Source of the DNA: Deltaproteobacteria bacterium | GTDB taxonomy: Bacteria; Myxococcota_A; Polyangia; Polyangiales; Houyiibacteriaceae | Direction of reading: 5' to 3' | Assembly: GCA_034670305.1 (NCBI GenBank) | Contig: JAXMNT010000005.1 | Span: forward strand, 96,001-160,000 | DNA length: 64,000 nt | Part shown: positions 26,599-32,914 of the stretch, in pieces | How positions within the stretch are numbered: position 1 is the first letter of the stretch | Layout of the letters: every line of letters begins with the position of its first letter | The notes under the pieces: model-generated | Databases searched by the model: none | Told to the model about the DNA's origin: nothing | The model's input: only the letters and a program-made list of their open reading frames with translations | Position numbers and translations under genes: made by a program

Positions 26599-26799
26599 AT
26601 GATTCATTTGCGCTTCGAAGGACGCTCCTACGAGTTCACGCCCCTGCAGCTCGGTGTTCACGCCGGCAGCGACGCGCGGCACATCAAGGAGCGGATCGCT
26701 CAGTTCCTCGACGTCGGCACGGACCGGCTCCAGCCCTACGTCGTCGATCATTCCCCCACCGGACACGTCATCGTTCGTCCGGAAGCCGTCTACGGCTGA
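26599..26799 (+). CDS. small 66-aa putative ubiquitin-like (beta-grasp) protein ending in Gly
   Basis: MIHLRFEGRSYEF...IKERIAQFLDVGTDRL..YVVD...VIVRPEAVYG*; purine-rich RBS AAAAGGGAA; TTGACG -35-like element at ~26533. Confidence 0.75.
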   Translation: MIHLRFEGRSYEFTPLQLGVHAGSDARHIKERIAQFLDVGTDRLQPYVVDHSPTGHVIVRPEAVYG

Positions 26800-26840
26800 A
26801 GCCTCTCGACCGACGCTTCCCGTCTTGGCATCAAGAGTTC

Positions 26841-27011
26841 GGTTCTCGCGACCCTACGTAGAAAGCCTACATACCCATTTCAAACCTGAGGATGTCGGTG
26901 CAAGTCCGACCCGGCCCGCCGCGACGAACCGTCGCTTCTCCAATGGGTCGGTAGTTCAATAGATAGAACGCAGGAGAGTATCCAAAAGCTTTCGCGACTC
27001 GCGCGAGATCC
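26841..27011 (+). ncRNA. Y-RNA-like unit 1: circularly permuted tRNA-like domain (T arm, acceptor, D arm) closed by a conserved stem
   Basis: T arm GTCGG-TGCAAGT-CCGAC at 26894-26910; CCGGCCC 26911-17 pairs with the later GGGTCGG 26945-51; D arm GTTC/GAAC; CCTG/CAGG; outer GAAAGC/GCTTTC and CTCGCG/CGCGAG. Confidence 0.8.
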
Positions 27012-27053
27012 AATCCAACACTGTCCCAAGGGACCCCAACTTCGTCAGGCTAC

Positions 27054-27132
27054 GGTCTGGCACCGTCGGACGTGAGTCCGGCAAAGGGTTGGACGCAAGT
27101 CCAACCTAGACCAAGATGCAAAGCAGCTTGGT
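27054..27132 (+). ncRNA. structured element: 7-bp acceptor-like helix with two GNRA hairpins
   Basis: GGTCTGG/CTAGACC enclosing GTCGGAC-GTGA-GTCCGGC and GGTTGGAC-GCAA-GTCCAACC. Confidence 0.5.
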
Positions 27133-27135
27133 TAT

Positions 27136-27282
27136 GGCGTTGTAGCTCAGTGGTAGAGCTCCAAGTTTACACCGCTTTCGAAACTTACGCGCAGAGCAAT
27201 CAAGCGCGGCCTCATCGTGGAAGCGTACATACTGTTTGGCCTCATAAGCCGGATGTCATAGGTTCGAATCCTATCAACGCCA
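27136..27282 (+). ncRNA. Y-RNA-like unit 2: tRNA(CAT)-like cloverleaf interrupted by a 75-nt insert
   Basis: GGCGTTG/CAACGCC-A acceptor, GCTC-AGTGGTA-GAGC D arm, CC[insert 27163-27237]GGC-CTCATAA-GCCGG, ATAGG-TTCGAAT-CCTAT. Confidence 0.8.
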
Positions 27283-27312
27283 CCGACGAACAGATGTCTT
27301 CGACGTCTGACC

Positions 27313-27408
27313 TCGCGCCCACCACCTGTTCCTACACACTCTCTTTGCAACAGAAGTTCTGTCTTCGGGGAGCGATCCCCGTCGCAAACGAACAGGCGAC
27401 TTTCGCGA
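27313..27408 (+). ncRNA. Y-RNA-like unit 3 (degenerate body)
   Basis: TCGCG/CGCGA, CCTGTTC/GAACAGG, CTACACAC motif, internal GGGGA-GCGA-TCCCC hairpin. Confidence 0.65.
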
Positions 27409-27558
27409 ACACTCGTCACCAACGTTATTGCCCGTCTCTCGCGGGGTTTCTGTGGGCCCGGACGCCTTCGGCTTTCCGAACCCTCGAAAACGGCTCCGGA
27501 CCTGCTCGTCGCTTCGCTCCTGCGCGGGCCCAGAGCCTCCCGCGCGAAAGATCACGTT

Positions 27559-27678
27559 CCTCGTGCCCTCACCCTCGCGGCTTACACACTCGTCTAATGG
27601 CTAGACACCGGATTATGGATCCGGCCATGGTGGTTCGATTCCACCGTGTCCAAATCAGCCGAGAAACCTTGCACGAGG
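27559..27678 (+). ncRNA. Y-RNA-like unit 4: D/anticodon(ATG)/T arms with the acceptor replaced by the conserved stem
   Basis: GTCT/AGAC, CCGGA-TTATGGA-TCCGG, GGTGG-TTCGATT-CCACC; ACAC/GTGT, CGGCT/AGCCG, CCTCGTGC/GCACGAGG. Confidence 0.8.
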
Positions 27679-29694: not shown

Positions 29695-29898
29695 GCGGCT
29701 GCGTCCTCTACACCTCCCACCGTGACCGCCGTCGCCGTTCCACCGAACGGCGGCGGCGGCATCACGCATGGTCGGCCGACGGGCAGTGCGCCCTCGGTCT
29801 TCTCTCGGACGCCGCGCGCAGCGGCGGGGCACGTACCAGCAGCACGTGTCGCGACGCTGCGCGCGGCGCCCGACCACAACGGCTCCGGTGCGCGAGAC

Positions 29899-29990
29899 GG
29901 ACTGCGTTTCGACCGGACGACACTGCGTTTCACCGGACGACACCGCGTTTCGACCGGACAGCGTTTCGGAGAATTTCGAAGCGACGTTTC
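29899..29990 (+). repeat. imperfect 20-21-bp direct repeats with GCGTTTC core
   Basis: ACTGCGTTTC(G)ACCGGACGAC-like units; GCGTTTC at 29904, 29925, 29945, 29961. Confidence 0.7.
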
Positions 29991-30089
29991 GGAGGGACCA
30001 CACAGCGCTTCGAAGCAGCGCTTCGCGAACAGCCGCCGTTCCAAACCTTCGTGCGTGGTCCGCCACGCACACCACCTCAGGAGGTCGTC

Positions 30090-30911
30090 ATGACCCAGAC
30101 CCAGATGCACAACGCCTACCGCCTGGCCGCCGCCGCGGTCCGTCGCCGCTACCTCGAGCAGCGCCCCGCCACGCTTGACGCACTCGATGCGCTCGCGCGT
30201 GGACACGTCGGGGTGCTCAAGGGCACGTACGACTCCGTCGAGCACGTGCTCGAGGCGCTGGGTGTGCCGTTCGAGATGAACCCGAAGAAGCTGACGCCCA
30301 AGTCGGGCAAGAAGGTCGTCTTCGCGAACTGCGCGAGCGCCTACACGCCCGAGCTCGTGTCCGACATCGAACGGTCGGTGCGCGAAGGTGCGCTGCTCGT
30401 GAGCTCGGACTGGGCGCTCGGCCGGCTCATCCAGGTCGGTTTCCCCGGCACGATCCGCAAGGCGCCGAAGGGCTCCAAGGACGAGGTCGTGGGCGTCGAG
30501 CCCACGCTCGACGGCATCTGGTCGGAGATCGTCGTGCTTGGTGCCGACCCGCAGTGGTGGCTCGAAGGCGGCAGCGAAGCGATCGAGGTTCTCGACCACG
30601 AGCGCGTGCGCGTCGAAGCGTCCAGCCACGAGATGCTGTGCAGCTACGACGCGTCGCCGGTCGCGGCGAGCTTCGACTGGCACGCAGGCCGCGTGTTCCA
30701 CGTGGTCAGCCACTTCTGGCTCAAGCGCACCCGCGCCGCGACGCCGGCGACGGCGGCCGACTTCCTCCGGCGCGGCATGCGCCTGAGCGAAGAGGGCATC
30801 GAGAAGGTCTTCGCGACCTCCAAGGTGCCGAAGGACCAGATCGACTTCGCGTCGCTTCAGAGCGCCGCGACGTCGACCGAACTGGTCGCGCGCCTGGTCG
30901 CGGAGGCGTGA
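30090..30911 (+). CDS. hypothetical protein, probable class I glutamine amidotransferase-like fold
   Basis: [54 protein letters not shown] alpha/beta pattern. Confidence 0.65.
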
Positions 30912-30952
30912 TCGAGAGGGCGGCGCTCCCGAAGGGGGCGCCCGCCATCTCG

Positions 30953-31236
30953 ACCCGTGCCCGTGCCCGTGCCCGACGAACCCGAAACCGAAACTGAAAC
31001 CGACTCCGAAGCCGAAGCCGAAGCCGAAGCCGAAGCCGAAGCCGAAGCCGACTCCGGAAGCCGAAGCCGAAGCCGACGCCGACTCCGAAGCCGACGCCGA
31101 CGCCGACGCCGACGCCGACGCCGACGCCGAAGCCGACGCCGACGCCGACTCCGAAGCCGACGCCGACGCCGAAACCGAAACCGCCGCCGACTCCGAAGCC
31201 GACGCCGACGCCGACGCCGAAGCCGAGGCCGACGCC
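30953..31236. repeat. bipartite hexamer repeat (CCCGTG)n-(GCCGAA/GCCGAC)n
   Basis: Tandem hexamers inside the putative operon. Confidence 0.85.
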
Positions 31237-31261
31237 GCCCATCACCGAAAGCCCATTCCCC

Positions 31262-32134
31262 ATGACCCACGTTCTCGATCTCATCGATCGGCTCGCCAAG
31301 CGCGAGGCCGAGTTCGCGCAGCGGCGGTTCCTCGCGCCGTGTGTGCCGGGGGCCAAGCTGCGTGTGCGCATCGATGGACTCGTGCACGAGGTTCGGCCGA
31401 ACCCGGCGGGCTTCGCGGGGTGGGGGGTGTTTCAGGCGATCGACGCGAAGCGCGCGCAGCTCGTGGCGCGTCCGGAAGCGTCGTCGATCGAGCGGTACCT
31501 CGGGGCGCTCGATCTCGTGCGCTTGCACCTCGTCTCGCAGGCGCGCGGTCGCGCGTGGTGGGCGGTGCCCGTCGGCGCGGAGGCGTTGCGGGTGCGGTAC
31601 GGATTGACGGCTCCGGTCGTCGTCCACCTCACGCGGGATGCCACCCAGTTCGAGACGGTGCAGGCACGCTTCGACGGCGCGAACTTCTGGTACGCCGGAC
31701 CGGAGTACCTCGCGGATCCGGTGCTCGCCGAGACCCTTCGCGACGCGCTTCAGACGTGGATCGAAGCGCCTCGGGCAGCGCATCTGACGCCGGAGCTCCT
31801 GCACGCCTACGCGCTCGCGTTTGGCATCCAGGCCGAGGCCCGGGCCAAGAAGCTCGCCGCAGAAGTCGCCGAACGTCGCAAGACGGTCGACGGCCGCATC
31901 GAGCACGCGCTGCACGTCGGTGGCGGCACGCTCATCGGGCACCGCGAGGCGCACGGTGCGCTTCAGGTGGAGTGGCGGGACCGCCACGGCCACCGCCACA
32001 TCAGCACGCTCCGCATGGAGCAGCTCGAGGTCTCCATGGCCGGCGCGGTCTGTCTGCAGGGCCGCGACTCGGACTTCGATCTCACCTCGCTGGTCGGCGT
32101 GCTCTCGCAGGCGCCCGACTACTTCTACGACTGA
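31262..32134 (+). CDS. hypothetical protein with putative E2-like C-terminal domain
   Basis: Clean ORF; C-terminal [19 protein letters not shown] (Cys264). Confidence 0.7.
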
Positions 32135-32287
32135 CCCCAAGCCGAGCGGCTGGAAACAACGCCAGCCGCTCGCTCCTTCTCTGCGCCGCACCCGTTCTCT
32201 GTGCCGCGCCCGTCTCTGTGCCGCGCTCGTTCAGGGCCGCGCCCGTCCTGGGCCGCGGCCCGACTGCGCTTACGAAAGCTCGATCCC

Positions 32288-32914
32288 ATGACCTTCCTCT
32301 TCCACGAAAAACTGTTCCGCGGTGCGGATGCGATGACGCGTCTCAAGGACGCGAAGGTCGGGATCTGCGGCGCCGGCGCACTCGGAAGCCACCTCGCGCT
32401 CGGGCTCGCCCGCACGGGCGTCGGCCACCTGCGCGTCATCGACCGCGACCGCGTCGAAGAGCGCAACCTCTCCACCCAGACGTGGTCCCGCGGCGACGTC
32501 GGGGGCCCGAAGGCGAAGTTGCTCGCGCACACGATCTTCCGCGCGGTCGGCACCCAGGTCGATGGCCGCATGAAGGAGCTCACCCGTTCCAACGGGCGCG
32601 CGCTGCTGCGTGGTCTCGACTTGGTGATCGACGTCTTCGACAACAGCGAAGCGCGGGCCGCGGTGCAGCTCGCCGCCGCAGAGCTTCGGATCCCCTGCCT
32701 CCACGCCGGCCTCGCGTCGGACTACGCGGAGTGCGTCTGGGACCCCCACTACACGGTTCCGTCAAACGCGAACGACGACGTCTGCGACTACCCGCTCGCC
32801 CGCAACCTCGCGGTCGTAGCGGCCGCGCTCGCGTCCGAGCTCGCCGTGCGCTTCCTCGCCACCGGCGAGAAGCGCGACCTCGCGCTGACGTTCGGCGACC
32901 TGCGGATCACCTGA
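32288..32914 (+). CDS. ThiF/E1-like adenylyltransferase
   Basis: [25 protein letters not shown]; candidate catalytic Cys166 in DDVCDYP; no CxxC zinc motifs. Confidence 0.9.

Follow-up and report, generated by a model that had tools for sequence, protein, structure and literature searches.

A divergent Ro60-like protein encoded together with tRNA-like Y-type RNAs, a candidate ubiquitin-like protein and a putative E1 in a sporadically distributed bacterial locus

The locus analyzed here lies in a 64,000-nt stretch of the genome of a Deltaproteobacteria bacterium (GenBank assembly GCA_034670305.1, contig JAXMNT010000005.1, positions 96,001 to 160,000), and this whole stretch is called the window below. 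Six elements, namely five open reading frames (ORFs) and an array of RNA elements (approximately 26843-27824), are all co-oriented on the + strand of the window between 26599 and 32914. The first ORF encodes a 66-aa candidate ubiquitin-like protein (Ubl; 26599-26799), whose C-terminus ...RPEAVYG is followed by the stop codon. The RNA array comes next, and it is followed by the gene of a 487-aa protein with a predicted helical-repeat ring and a vWA domain (28231-29694), referred to as the Ro-like protein, by the genes of two conserved proteins, p286 (ORF 30051-30911) and p290 (290 aa; 31262-32134), and finally by that of a minimal E1-like (ubiquitin-activating type) enzyme with a ThiF fold (32288-32914, in an ORF from 32201). 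A preliminary description of this DNA had listed a 66-aa protein, an RNA array of about 1 kb, a TROVE-like/vWA protein, an unknown alpha/beta protein, a protein with a G-x-V-C-L motif and a ThiF/E1 as one co-oriented cluster, and all of them were indeed present. The cluster is flanked by a DNA polymerase III alpha-type gene (22748-26314) and by dnaA on the minus strand (33860-35239), and the G+C content of the RNA region is 57-59% versus 65-72% in the surrounding genes. Its recurrence in other phyla and on viral contigs puts this arrangement far beyond chance.

Conservation of Ro60 and its Y RNAs reaches from bacteria to humans, and the few links to effectors known for them are PNPase and the RtcB neighborhood. 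A Ro60/Y-RNA ribonucleoprotein (RNP) and a bacterial E1/Ubl pair are each of a known kind, and their combination appears to be unreported: a partial search of the literature, which may have missed a prior mention, gave no account of a Ro-like protein with Ubl and E1, nor of the RNAs described below.

The Ro-like protein and the Y-type RNAs

The 487-aa vWA protein is, according to its predicted structure, a divergent Ro60, in which a ring of HEAT-like helical repeats is closed by the vWA domain. The AlphaFold2 model, made from 47 sequences, had a mean predicted local distance difference test (pLDDT) score of 84.2 and a predicted template modeling (pTM) score of 0.76. When this model was compared with the PDB by Foldseek, the 12 best matches were all Ro60 (E 1.5e-12 to 1.4e-9, template modeling score 0.57-0.70), including frog and human Ro60, Deinococcus Rsr and the Ro60 of a Thermus phage. 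These alignments spanned 478-545 columns, which is the full length of the model, and generic vWA domains ranked after Ro60 with E values of about 1e-5 or weaker. The MIDAS (site for metal-ion-dependent adhesion) residues D304-x-S306-x-S308, together with T389 and D390, were invariant in the 47 sequences. Searches by sequence gave little for this protein: the only Pfam match was VWA_2 (21.3 bits, below the cut-off), and PDB sequence and profile searches returned nothing meaningful. A six-frame search of the window's whole genome (96% complete) with Pfam TROVE (PF05731) gave no match, and control genomes did match. The family is large, with at least 2336 proteins at E<=0.001 (8000 candidates scored) and at least 385 places in species-representative genomes, and identity across phyla is about 60%. 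Among the 120 matches listed, homologs were 57-74% identical to the window protein and were annotated as “hypothetical” or “vWA domain-containing”.

ARAGORN made three tRNA calls in the whole 64 kb, and all three were inside the RNA array. The Rfam tRNA model scored above its gathering score at 27136-27282 (50.6 bits, with a 66-nt insert), 27583-27653 (39.4 bits) and 27720-27786 (50.5 bits). blastn of the intergenic region then showed a segment common to many related loci, and a sample of 80 related loci and six viral contigs was examined. From 55 copies we aligned a class-1 unit of about 130 nt, which consists of a basal stem P1 of 9 bp, an internal loop with conserved 5' (C-C-U-A-A-C) and 3' (G-A-C-U-U) sides, a second stem P2 of 7 bp, and a tRNA-like head. 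The head comprises an acceptor stem of 5 bp and the D, anticodon and T arms, and a conserved single-stranded 3' segment replaces CCA. RNAalifold predicted 29 pairs for this alignment, and 20 of them had compensatory changes. A covariance model of class 1 (R1) found two full copies in the window: copy 1 at 27558-27684 (85.9 bits, E 9e-20) has a direct tRNA-like head called as His with anticodon AUG by ARAGORN, and copy 2 at 27692-27824, also with a direct tRNA-like head, has the Lys-type anticodon CUU (108.9 bits, as a member of the training set of R1).

A second class was represented by the element at 26843-27014, which has P1, loop and P2 as in class 1 and a different head. R1 matched it over its full length more weakly (27.5 bits, E 7e-5), and R2, the covariance model of class 2, matched it with 97.3 bits, the element itself belonging to the training alignment. 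In the alignment of 47 class-2 elements, the window element included, the head runs in the order T arm, closed 7-bp acceptor-like stem, D arm, and compensatory changes were found in 24 of the 30 predicted pairs. PMC4201824 gives the same order of T arm, closed acceptor stem and D arm for the head of YrlA. Like YrlA-type Y RNAs, the class-2 elements have a stem made by their 5' and 3' ends and are encoded beside the gene of the Ro60-type protein. Between the two classes, at 27088-27336, lie degenerate tRNA-like pieces with T-arm-like and D-arm-like hairpins. Besides the Rfam tRNA match, these pieces gave low R2 scores of 19.8 bits (27204-27336) and 11.5 bits (27088-27171), and blastn similarity to portions of class-2 elements from other loci. 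Thus, the RNAs are a new covarying Y-RNA-like family with a shared basal stem and two head types, tRNA-like and permuted YrlA-like, and the earlier proposal that they are tRNA mimics of the Y-RNA type was borne out by the covariation in both classes.

Across the 80 related loci, R1 gave 388 matches at E<=1e-3, about 140 of them above 80 bits, and every match among the 300 listed had the same orientation as the Ro-like gene. The two copies of this locus were the only strong ones in the window's own genome, where the rest of the matches covered the tRNA part only (33-51 bits). ARAGORN made 208 calls in the 80 loci, and 111 of these carried the 5' junction of the family, with at least 30 different anticodons. 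These included Leu-type UAG (14), CAA (13) and UAA (6), then CAU (11), AUU (7) and the nonsense-reading CUA (5) and UUA (4), and six loops were abnormal. Because so many anticodons and abnormal loops occur among calls with a conserved junction, the anticodon arm is the fast-changing part of an otherwise conserved RNA. Most of the junction-bearing calls (93 of 111) were only 72-75 nt, which is short for tRNA-Leu. Despite the Rfam scores, the class-1 consensus departs from tRNA in having an acceptor stem of 5 bp and not 7 bp, in lacking CCA, and in having both ends run into P2 and P1.

Two variations of the basal stem were seen in other loci. In many cyanobacterial loci an element of about 80-95 nt just before the start codon of the Ro-like gene (L046 6846-6932, L055 6845-6931, L052/L058/L074 6863-6943, and others) matched R1 end to end and had the basal stem without the tRNA-like head; there was no such match in the window. 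This headless element could be an autoregulation site. In locus L033, four genuine tRNAs of a 17-gene array matched the full R1 including the flanking stems (1195-1323, 2261-2384, 2457-2579 and 2633-2756), and the basal stem may therefore be common to array tRNAs and Y-like RNAs.

As for expression, three contigs of metatranscriptome run X17 were near-identical to the window at 26958-27105, 27126-27276 and 29354-29505, differing from it by 7, 2 and 0 letters per approximately 150. These positions fall in the RNA array and the Ro-like gene, and the contigs give only a weak hint that both are transcribed, since the library may hold DNA; no meaning attaches to stretches that such contigs leave uncovered. 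A scan for promoters and terminators was uninformative (no promoter-like sites, and terminator-like sites at the level of shuffled sequence).

The ubiquitin-like protein, the E1-like enzyme and p290

The small protein upstream of the array has an exposed C-terminal glycine, and its penultimate residue is Tyr, not Gly. A tblastn search of the 80 loci gave 57 homologs, all of which end in RPEAVYG directly before the stop codon. An aromatic-Gly tail is reminiscent of Atg8 and Atg12. Ubl belongs to no Pfam, NCBIfam or PADLOC family.

The E1-like enzyme matched Pfam ThiF with 102.2 bits, and its homologs indicate a start at 32288, giving 208 aa. Invariant in 24 sequences were the glycine loop GAGALG, [13 protein letters not shown], N-D-D-x-C-D-Y-P, and C166; the glycine loop and the D-N motif F-D-N-S align to the active adenylation domain of Uba1. 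In the PDB profile search Uba1 (57 bits), TcdA (51-56), MccB (about 50) and Cap2 (39-41) all matched, as did Uba4, MoeB and a bacterial ThiF-type protein, all within 39-57 bits. Since Uba1, TcdA, MccB, Uba4, MoeB and Cap2 scored alike, the enzyme is, on sequence comparison, placed within no characterized subfamily. Among PADLOC models it matched the E1 part of Cap2-type E1-E2 models with up to 61.6 bits, and its NCBIfam matches, of which ThiF and MoeB types were the best, were all far below the curated cut-offs.

A complex prediction of Ubl with E1 scored 0.71, and the best of three controls scored 0.00; the score mark used is reached by 116 of 157 solved complexes versus 2 of 215 mismatched pairs. 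The runs agreed in at least 98% of contacts. Ubl residues 60-66 were predicted to contact E1 residues 28-33 (GAGALG), 116-120 (FDNS) and 140-148, at the glycine loop and the D-N motif. The prediction, a check suggested with the first description of the locus, thus places the C-terminal tail of Ubl in the E1 adenylation site, which supports binding and does not demonstrate it.

The features of Ubl and E1 also bring in the main rival explanation, in which Ubl would be a sulfur carrier of the ThiS/MoaD/TtuB kind that is thiocarboxylated and thiolates tRNA or the tRNA-like RNAs, with p290 and p286 as new sulfur-transfer or RNA-binding factors and without any tagging of proteins. Dual-function Ubls for tRNA thiolation are known from TtuB/TtuC, Urm1/Uba4 and SAMP2/UbaA, and in these, as in the locus, a Ubl of roughly 65 aa goes with an E1 in a context related to tRNA. 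The sulfur carrier would fit with a minimal E1 for which no E2 (conjugating enzyme) or peptidase partner was detected, with ThiF and MoeB types as the best (if far sub-threshold) NCBIfam matches, with Uba4 and MoeB among the PDB profile matches, and with a Ubl of ThiS/TtuB size next to tRNA-like RNAs. However, the sulfur carriers known to us end in Gly-Gly, and the Tyr-Gly tail here was invariant in 57/57 homologs. The aligned E1 also has no paired CxxC motifs, and no rhodanese, cysteine desulfurase or PP-loop ATPase (thiolase) was found among the conserved neighbor clusters. We consider a sulfur carrier unlikely, and still the one to be taken most seriously among the rivals.

The third conserved partner, p290, has an OB (oligonucleotide/oligosaccharide-binding) fold and a C-terminal Cys motif. 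The motif is G-[IV]-C-L-x-G-x-D-x-x-F-D-L, so the G-x-V-C-L protein described earlier was found again, with G-A-V-C-L at 261-265 and C264 invariant in 28/28 aligned homologs; H246 and S248 were also invariant. We take the G-[IV]-C-L part to resemble an E2 active-site motif. No HPN stands shortly before the Cys, and the nearest His is H246 (in H-x-S), 18 residues ahead of C264. In the p290 model (pLDDT 79.2), N-terminal domains rich in beta strands are accompanied by a long helix and by a small beta-meander; the confidently modeled part is the OB fold, and residues 254-290 with the Cys motif are at pLDDT <50. Foldseek gave no match at E<=1e-3, only weak rows of S1, cold-shock, EF-P and Mpa OB folds, and among the 48,161 chains compared by VIA-align, OB folds matched residues 82-151 with Z of about 7. 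A profile search of 1.84 billion cluster representatives found 990 members of the family at E<=0.001, and the best 150 of these were nearly all stand-alone proteins of about 270-320 aa with no obvious function-giving fusion. Neither p290 nor p286 matched a Pfam, NCBIfam or PADLOC family; a match to Cas7_IIIh at E 0.016, the only PADLOC one in the searches with Ubl, p286 and p290, was taken as chance.

The OB fold, of a kind common in RNA-binding proteins, bears on another explanation, namely that the E1 acts on a non-protein target. This could be the tRNA-like heads themselves, in a reaction like that of TcdA at t6A37, or the product could be a Ubl-nucleotide or Ubl-RNA adduct, formed as by MccB or as an ester to an RNA hydroxyl and held by the ring. 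TcdA (51-56 bits) and MccB (about 50) do score near Uba1 (57), no E2 was found, and the RNAs, Ubl and the Ro-like gene have nearly the same phyletic pattern. Against it, the heads have no free CCA end, as their 3' side continues single-stranded into P2, and in the complex prediction it is the tail of Ubl and not RNA that occupies the adenylation site; to our knowledge a protein-RNA product of an E1 has no precedent. This explanation seems to us improbable.

For p286, homolog alignment indicates a start at 30090 within the ORF 30051-30911 (286 aa), so the protein would have 273 aa (30090-30911). C81, S106-D107-W108, H180, H204 and H208 were invariant in an alignment of 12 homologs, and a search against the PDB gave no match. 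No structure of p286 or of Ubl was present in the Atlas; the nearest named Atlas clusters for p286 were BPL_N, SNO and GATase_3 at 0.88-0.89, and a class-I glutamine-amidotransferase-like fold is possible, as a lead only. The “unknown alpha/beta protein” of the preliminary description is thus present and without a family, and for its fold there is only this lead.

Linkage, distribution and gene neighborhood

Wherever Ubl was found (57/57 loci), it was upstream of the Ro-like gene and on the same strand, at a distance of 242-6327 nt (median 1872). Ubl was present in 42 of the 49 loci that extend for at least 6.9 kb on either side, p290 in 24, E1 in 22, and all three in 21. Whenever p290 and E1 were both found close to the Ro-like gene, they were direct neighbors. 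p290 without E1 was seen in three loci, and in two of them the p290 match runs to the end of the locus. Five genomes without nearby p290 and E1 were tested, and elsewhere in each of them there was a single strong match to p290 (E 1e-122 to 1e-140) and a single strong E1 ortholog (E 1e-104 to 1e-118).

In a sample of 101 genomes of the cyanobacterial class (R1 at E<=1e-13, E1 ortholog at E<=1e-45), the Ro-like gene was present in 12 and Ubl in 13, which were the same 12 plus G167. R1 RNAs were found in exactly the 13 genomes with Ubl. p290 and the E1 ortholog were each present in 9 genomes, all within the 12 with the Ro-like gene (union 10), and there was no match in the 89 Ro-like-negative genomes. 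In two of the partial cases, G198 and G216, the gene is cut at a contig end. The co-conservation in other genomes that was anticipated at the outset is therefore seen both in the 80 loci and in the 101 genomes; because the genomes are related and hence not independent, the numbers are to be read as a pattern and not as a test. The phylum of the window was sampled with 121 genomes, and there the window's genome was the only one with a Ro-like gene, the only one with p290 and the only one with an E1 ortholog.

Six IMG/VR contigs also encoded a Ro-like protein, with 43-47% identity; Ubl was present in four of them, p290 in four and E1 in three, and together they held 31 R1 matches, the best with 78.6 bits. 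One of these records, of 97.5 kb, carries direct repeats at its termini and has a rating of complete, and two are classed as proviruses. Because the distribution is sporadic and identity across phyla is about 60%, the sequence comparisons point to horizontal spread of the module.

Several further genes recurred in the cyanobacterial loci. The most frequent conserved neighbors were an L7/L12 paralog (31 loci), a GNAT acetyltransferase (27), an uncharacterized 103-aa protein (26) and an uncharacterized 241-aa protein (22), followed by DUF6847 (12), Tpt1/KptA (11), an AAA ATPase (10), an EF-Ts paralog (7), an RNA ligase (6) and HNH (6). Examples of L7/L12, EF-Ts, GNAT, Tpt1/KptA and RNA ligase are at L054:5531-5920, L056:3770-4732, L023:8589-9194, L005:2691-3242 and L067:9474-10466, and none of the five is in the window. 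Long tRNA arrays adjoin the loci L017, L033, L066, L076, L079 and L072.

The available parts of PMC8421152 and PMC10272220 report that translation inhibitors act by way of the repressor TrcR to induce the long tRNA arrays of cyanobacteria, together with genes of RNA processing and translation close to them, that the TrcR regulon includes GNAT, AAA ATPase, RtcB and HNH genes, and (PMC8421152) that such arrays spread horizontally. The loci here resemble the trn operon and the TrcR regulon in the adjoining tRNA arrays and in the kinds of genes nearby (GNAT, AAA ATPase, HNH, RNA ligase). The parts of the two papers available to us contain no mention of a Ro-like protein, Ubl, E1 or stem-flanked tRNA-like RNAs, which could still be among the “hypothetical” entries of PMC8421152. 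Because tRNA arrays, L7/L12 and EF-Ts paralogs, GNAT, Tpt1 and RNA ligase are the neighbors, the context suggests a role in translation stress or tRNA conflict.

The same context could mean that the RNAs are ordinary or decaying tRNAs of mobile arrays, that their flanks are processing signals, and that the protein genes are island passengers without a shared mechanism. Several loci do adjoin long arrays, which are mobile themselves according to the available part of PMC8421152, the four genuine tRNAs of L033 match the whole of R1 with flanks included, and HNH genes typical of such arrays are nearby. But class 1 has the 5-bp acceptor stem, no CCA, and odd or nonsense anticodons, it has Leu-type anticodons even though most calls (93 of 111) are short for tRNA-Leu, and the class-2 heads are circularly permuted. 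Furthermore, strong R1 matches follow the distribution of Ubl and of the Ro-like gene across the genomes (13, 13 and 12 of 101), and the R1 copies are co-oriented with and upstream of the Ro-like gene in all the matches listed. We regard this explanation as very improbable.

Interpretation, related systems and flanking sequences

The reading that we prefer, tentatively and at a little short of an even chance, is that the locus forms a single functional module, spread horizontally and occurring in bacteria and on phage-classed contigs, with a divergent Ro60-type RNP at its core and with Ubl-E1 chemistry. In such a module the Ro60-like ring would bind the basal stem common to the Y-type RNAs and display their tRNA-like heads. 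The minimal E1 is predicted to adenylate the C-terminal glycine of Ubl, and the activated Ubl would probably be passed to a cysteine, E1 C166 and perhaps C264 of p290. Ubl may then be joined to a target that is held at the tRNA-mimic RNP. With its OB fold, p290 is a likely RNA-binding or relay partner of the E1. Judged from the gene neighbors, the module would most likely act when translation or tRNA is damaged or attacked.

Several observations weigh against this reading. At the level of linkage, E1 and p290 were not neighbors of the Ro-like gene in 19 of the 49 fully flanked loci, 2 of the 12 Ro-like-positive cyanobacterial genomes had neither p290 nor E1 (assembly gaps are possible), and p286, counted at a coverage above 200 residues, was found in a minority, 11 of the 60 loci with 6.9 kb of downstream flank. 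As for the RNP, the Ro-like protein had no Pfam TROVE match at E<=1, so that of the TROVE-like/vWA assignment made at first the Ro60 fold held over the full length, and the Pfam TROVE membership fell away. Rfam YrlA (RF02553) scored 28.2 bits at 26856-27000, versus a gathering score of 69, and 28.5-37 bits in the related loci L002, L010 and L021, also below 69; the permuted architecture of class 2 explains these weak matches. The tRNA matches of L033 mean that the basal stem could be a processing or array feature and not a Ro-binding site.

On the side of Ubl-E1 chemistry, the tail of Ubl is Tyr-Gly rather than Gly-Gly, Ubl has no sequence relative among known beta-grasp proteins (Pfam and PDB profile search), and it was modeled as the partner in the complex with E1, where its pLDDT was at least 89. 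The passing score of this complex may partly reflect likeness to solved E1-Ubl complexes of related families. The sequence and structure searches gave no canonical E2, E3 (ligase) or deubiquitinase, and no JAB or other known peptidase. p290 had been put forward as E2-like, and this claim obtained no support: Foldseek and VIA-align, with a model whose Cys-motif tail is at pLDDT <50, returned OB folds and no UBC chain, UQ_con matched 0 of 21 C-terminal fragments of p290 at E<=10 (Pfam), and a PDB profile search with the p290 tail found no E2.

A more specific version of the preferred module would be an RNA-programmed tagging machine, in which the Ro60-like ring offers diversifying anticodon loops as bait for tRNA-attacking or tRNA-modifying enzymes, such as anticodon nucleases of phage or host, and an E1/p290 relay without a canonical E2 joins the Tyr-Gly Ubl covalently to the captured enzyme or to the RNA itself. 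The variable anticodon loops and the phage and tRNA-array context are compatible with an anticodon-nuclease bait; taken as a whole, we think that this elaborate version has a rather small likelihood. If true, it would be the first link of Ro/Y-RNA surveillance to ubiquitin-type chemistry.

Compared with bacterial Ro60 (Rsr) and its Y RNAs (YrlA/YrlB, Yrn1, RYPER with PNPase, and rsr-yrlBA-rtcBA), the locus has the same fold of helical-repeat ring and vWA domain, with noncoding RNA genes likewise directly upstream on the same strand, and both occur also in phages. It differs in a protein without Pfam TROVE signal and in RNAs below the Rfam YrlA threshold, which have a different basal stem and internal loop and do not carry the GNCGAA-type motif of YrlA at their 5' end. 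The locus also adds a second, non-permuted class with hypervariable anticodon loops, in multi-copy arrays. In place of RtcB/RtcA, its partners are Ubl, E1 and p290: as the preliminary description had it, the window has no RtcB, and the single RtcB match of the genome is on another contig (the search was for RtcB and not for RtcA).

CBASS Cap2/Cap3 and Bil likewise combine, in contexts of phage conflict, a small protein that exposes a Gly at its C-terminus with an E1 of the ThiF fold in which a Cys is conserved. The available part of PMC11601596 describes the same for Bub. Unlike these systems, the locus has no detected UBC-fold E2 or peptidase, its tail is Tyr-Gly, and it is coupled to a Ro60-like RNP and RNAs.

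The analysis adds a large, unannotated and highly conserved Ro60-like family, carried by 12 of the 101 sampled cyanobacteria, a new Y-RNA family that has two head types, and an almost perfect phyletic association with a Ubl, an E1 and an OB-fold protein that are dedicated partners. Should Ubl be conjugated, bacteria and phages would have a ubiquitin-like pathway that lacks a recognizable E2 and is tied to tRNA mimicry and probably to translation stress or tRNA-targeting conflicts. The carriers include culturable, non-pathogenic cyanobacteria, such as the Tolypothrix, Nostoc and Calothrix strains of L052, L074 and L023, so the proposal is directly testable, and such work could address what the Ro60 MIDAS site does and how the tRNA-like module of Y RNAs functions.

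Some minor features were also found in and around the cluster. Long tandem arrays of hexanucleotides (units such as CGGCTT, CGAAGC and GCGTCG, 6 to 47 copies) were seen at 25366-25584, 26355-26395, 27959-28091, 30977-31237 and 32919-33382; they fill its intergenic spacers and also occur within the polymerase gene, where they encode Gly/Ala/Ser-rich runs, and similar repeats from other organisms pile up among the contigs placed at 32962-33000. Upstream of the DnaE-type polymerase gene, the ORF 19997-22738 (+) contains an 18-nt tandem repeat at 20687-20817 (7.3 copies); its identification as ImuB was dropped, as the C-terminal 579 residues had no Pfam match at E<=1e-5. Opposite dnaA, Rfam AsdA, an antisense RNA of the dnaA mRNA, matched at 34679-34759 (+) with 57.9 bits, above its gathering score of 52, and a cobalamin riboswitch was matched by Rfam at 12092-12255 (+) with 53.7 bits.

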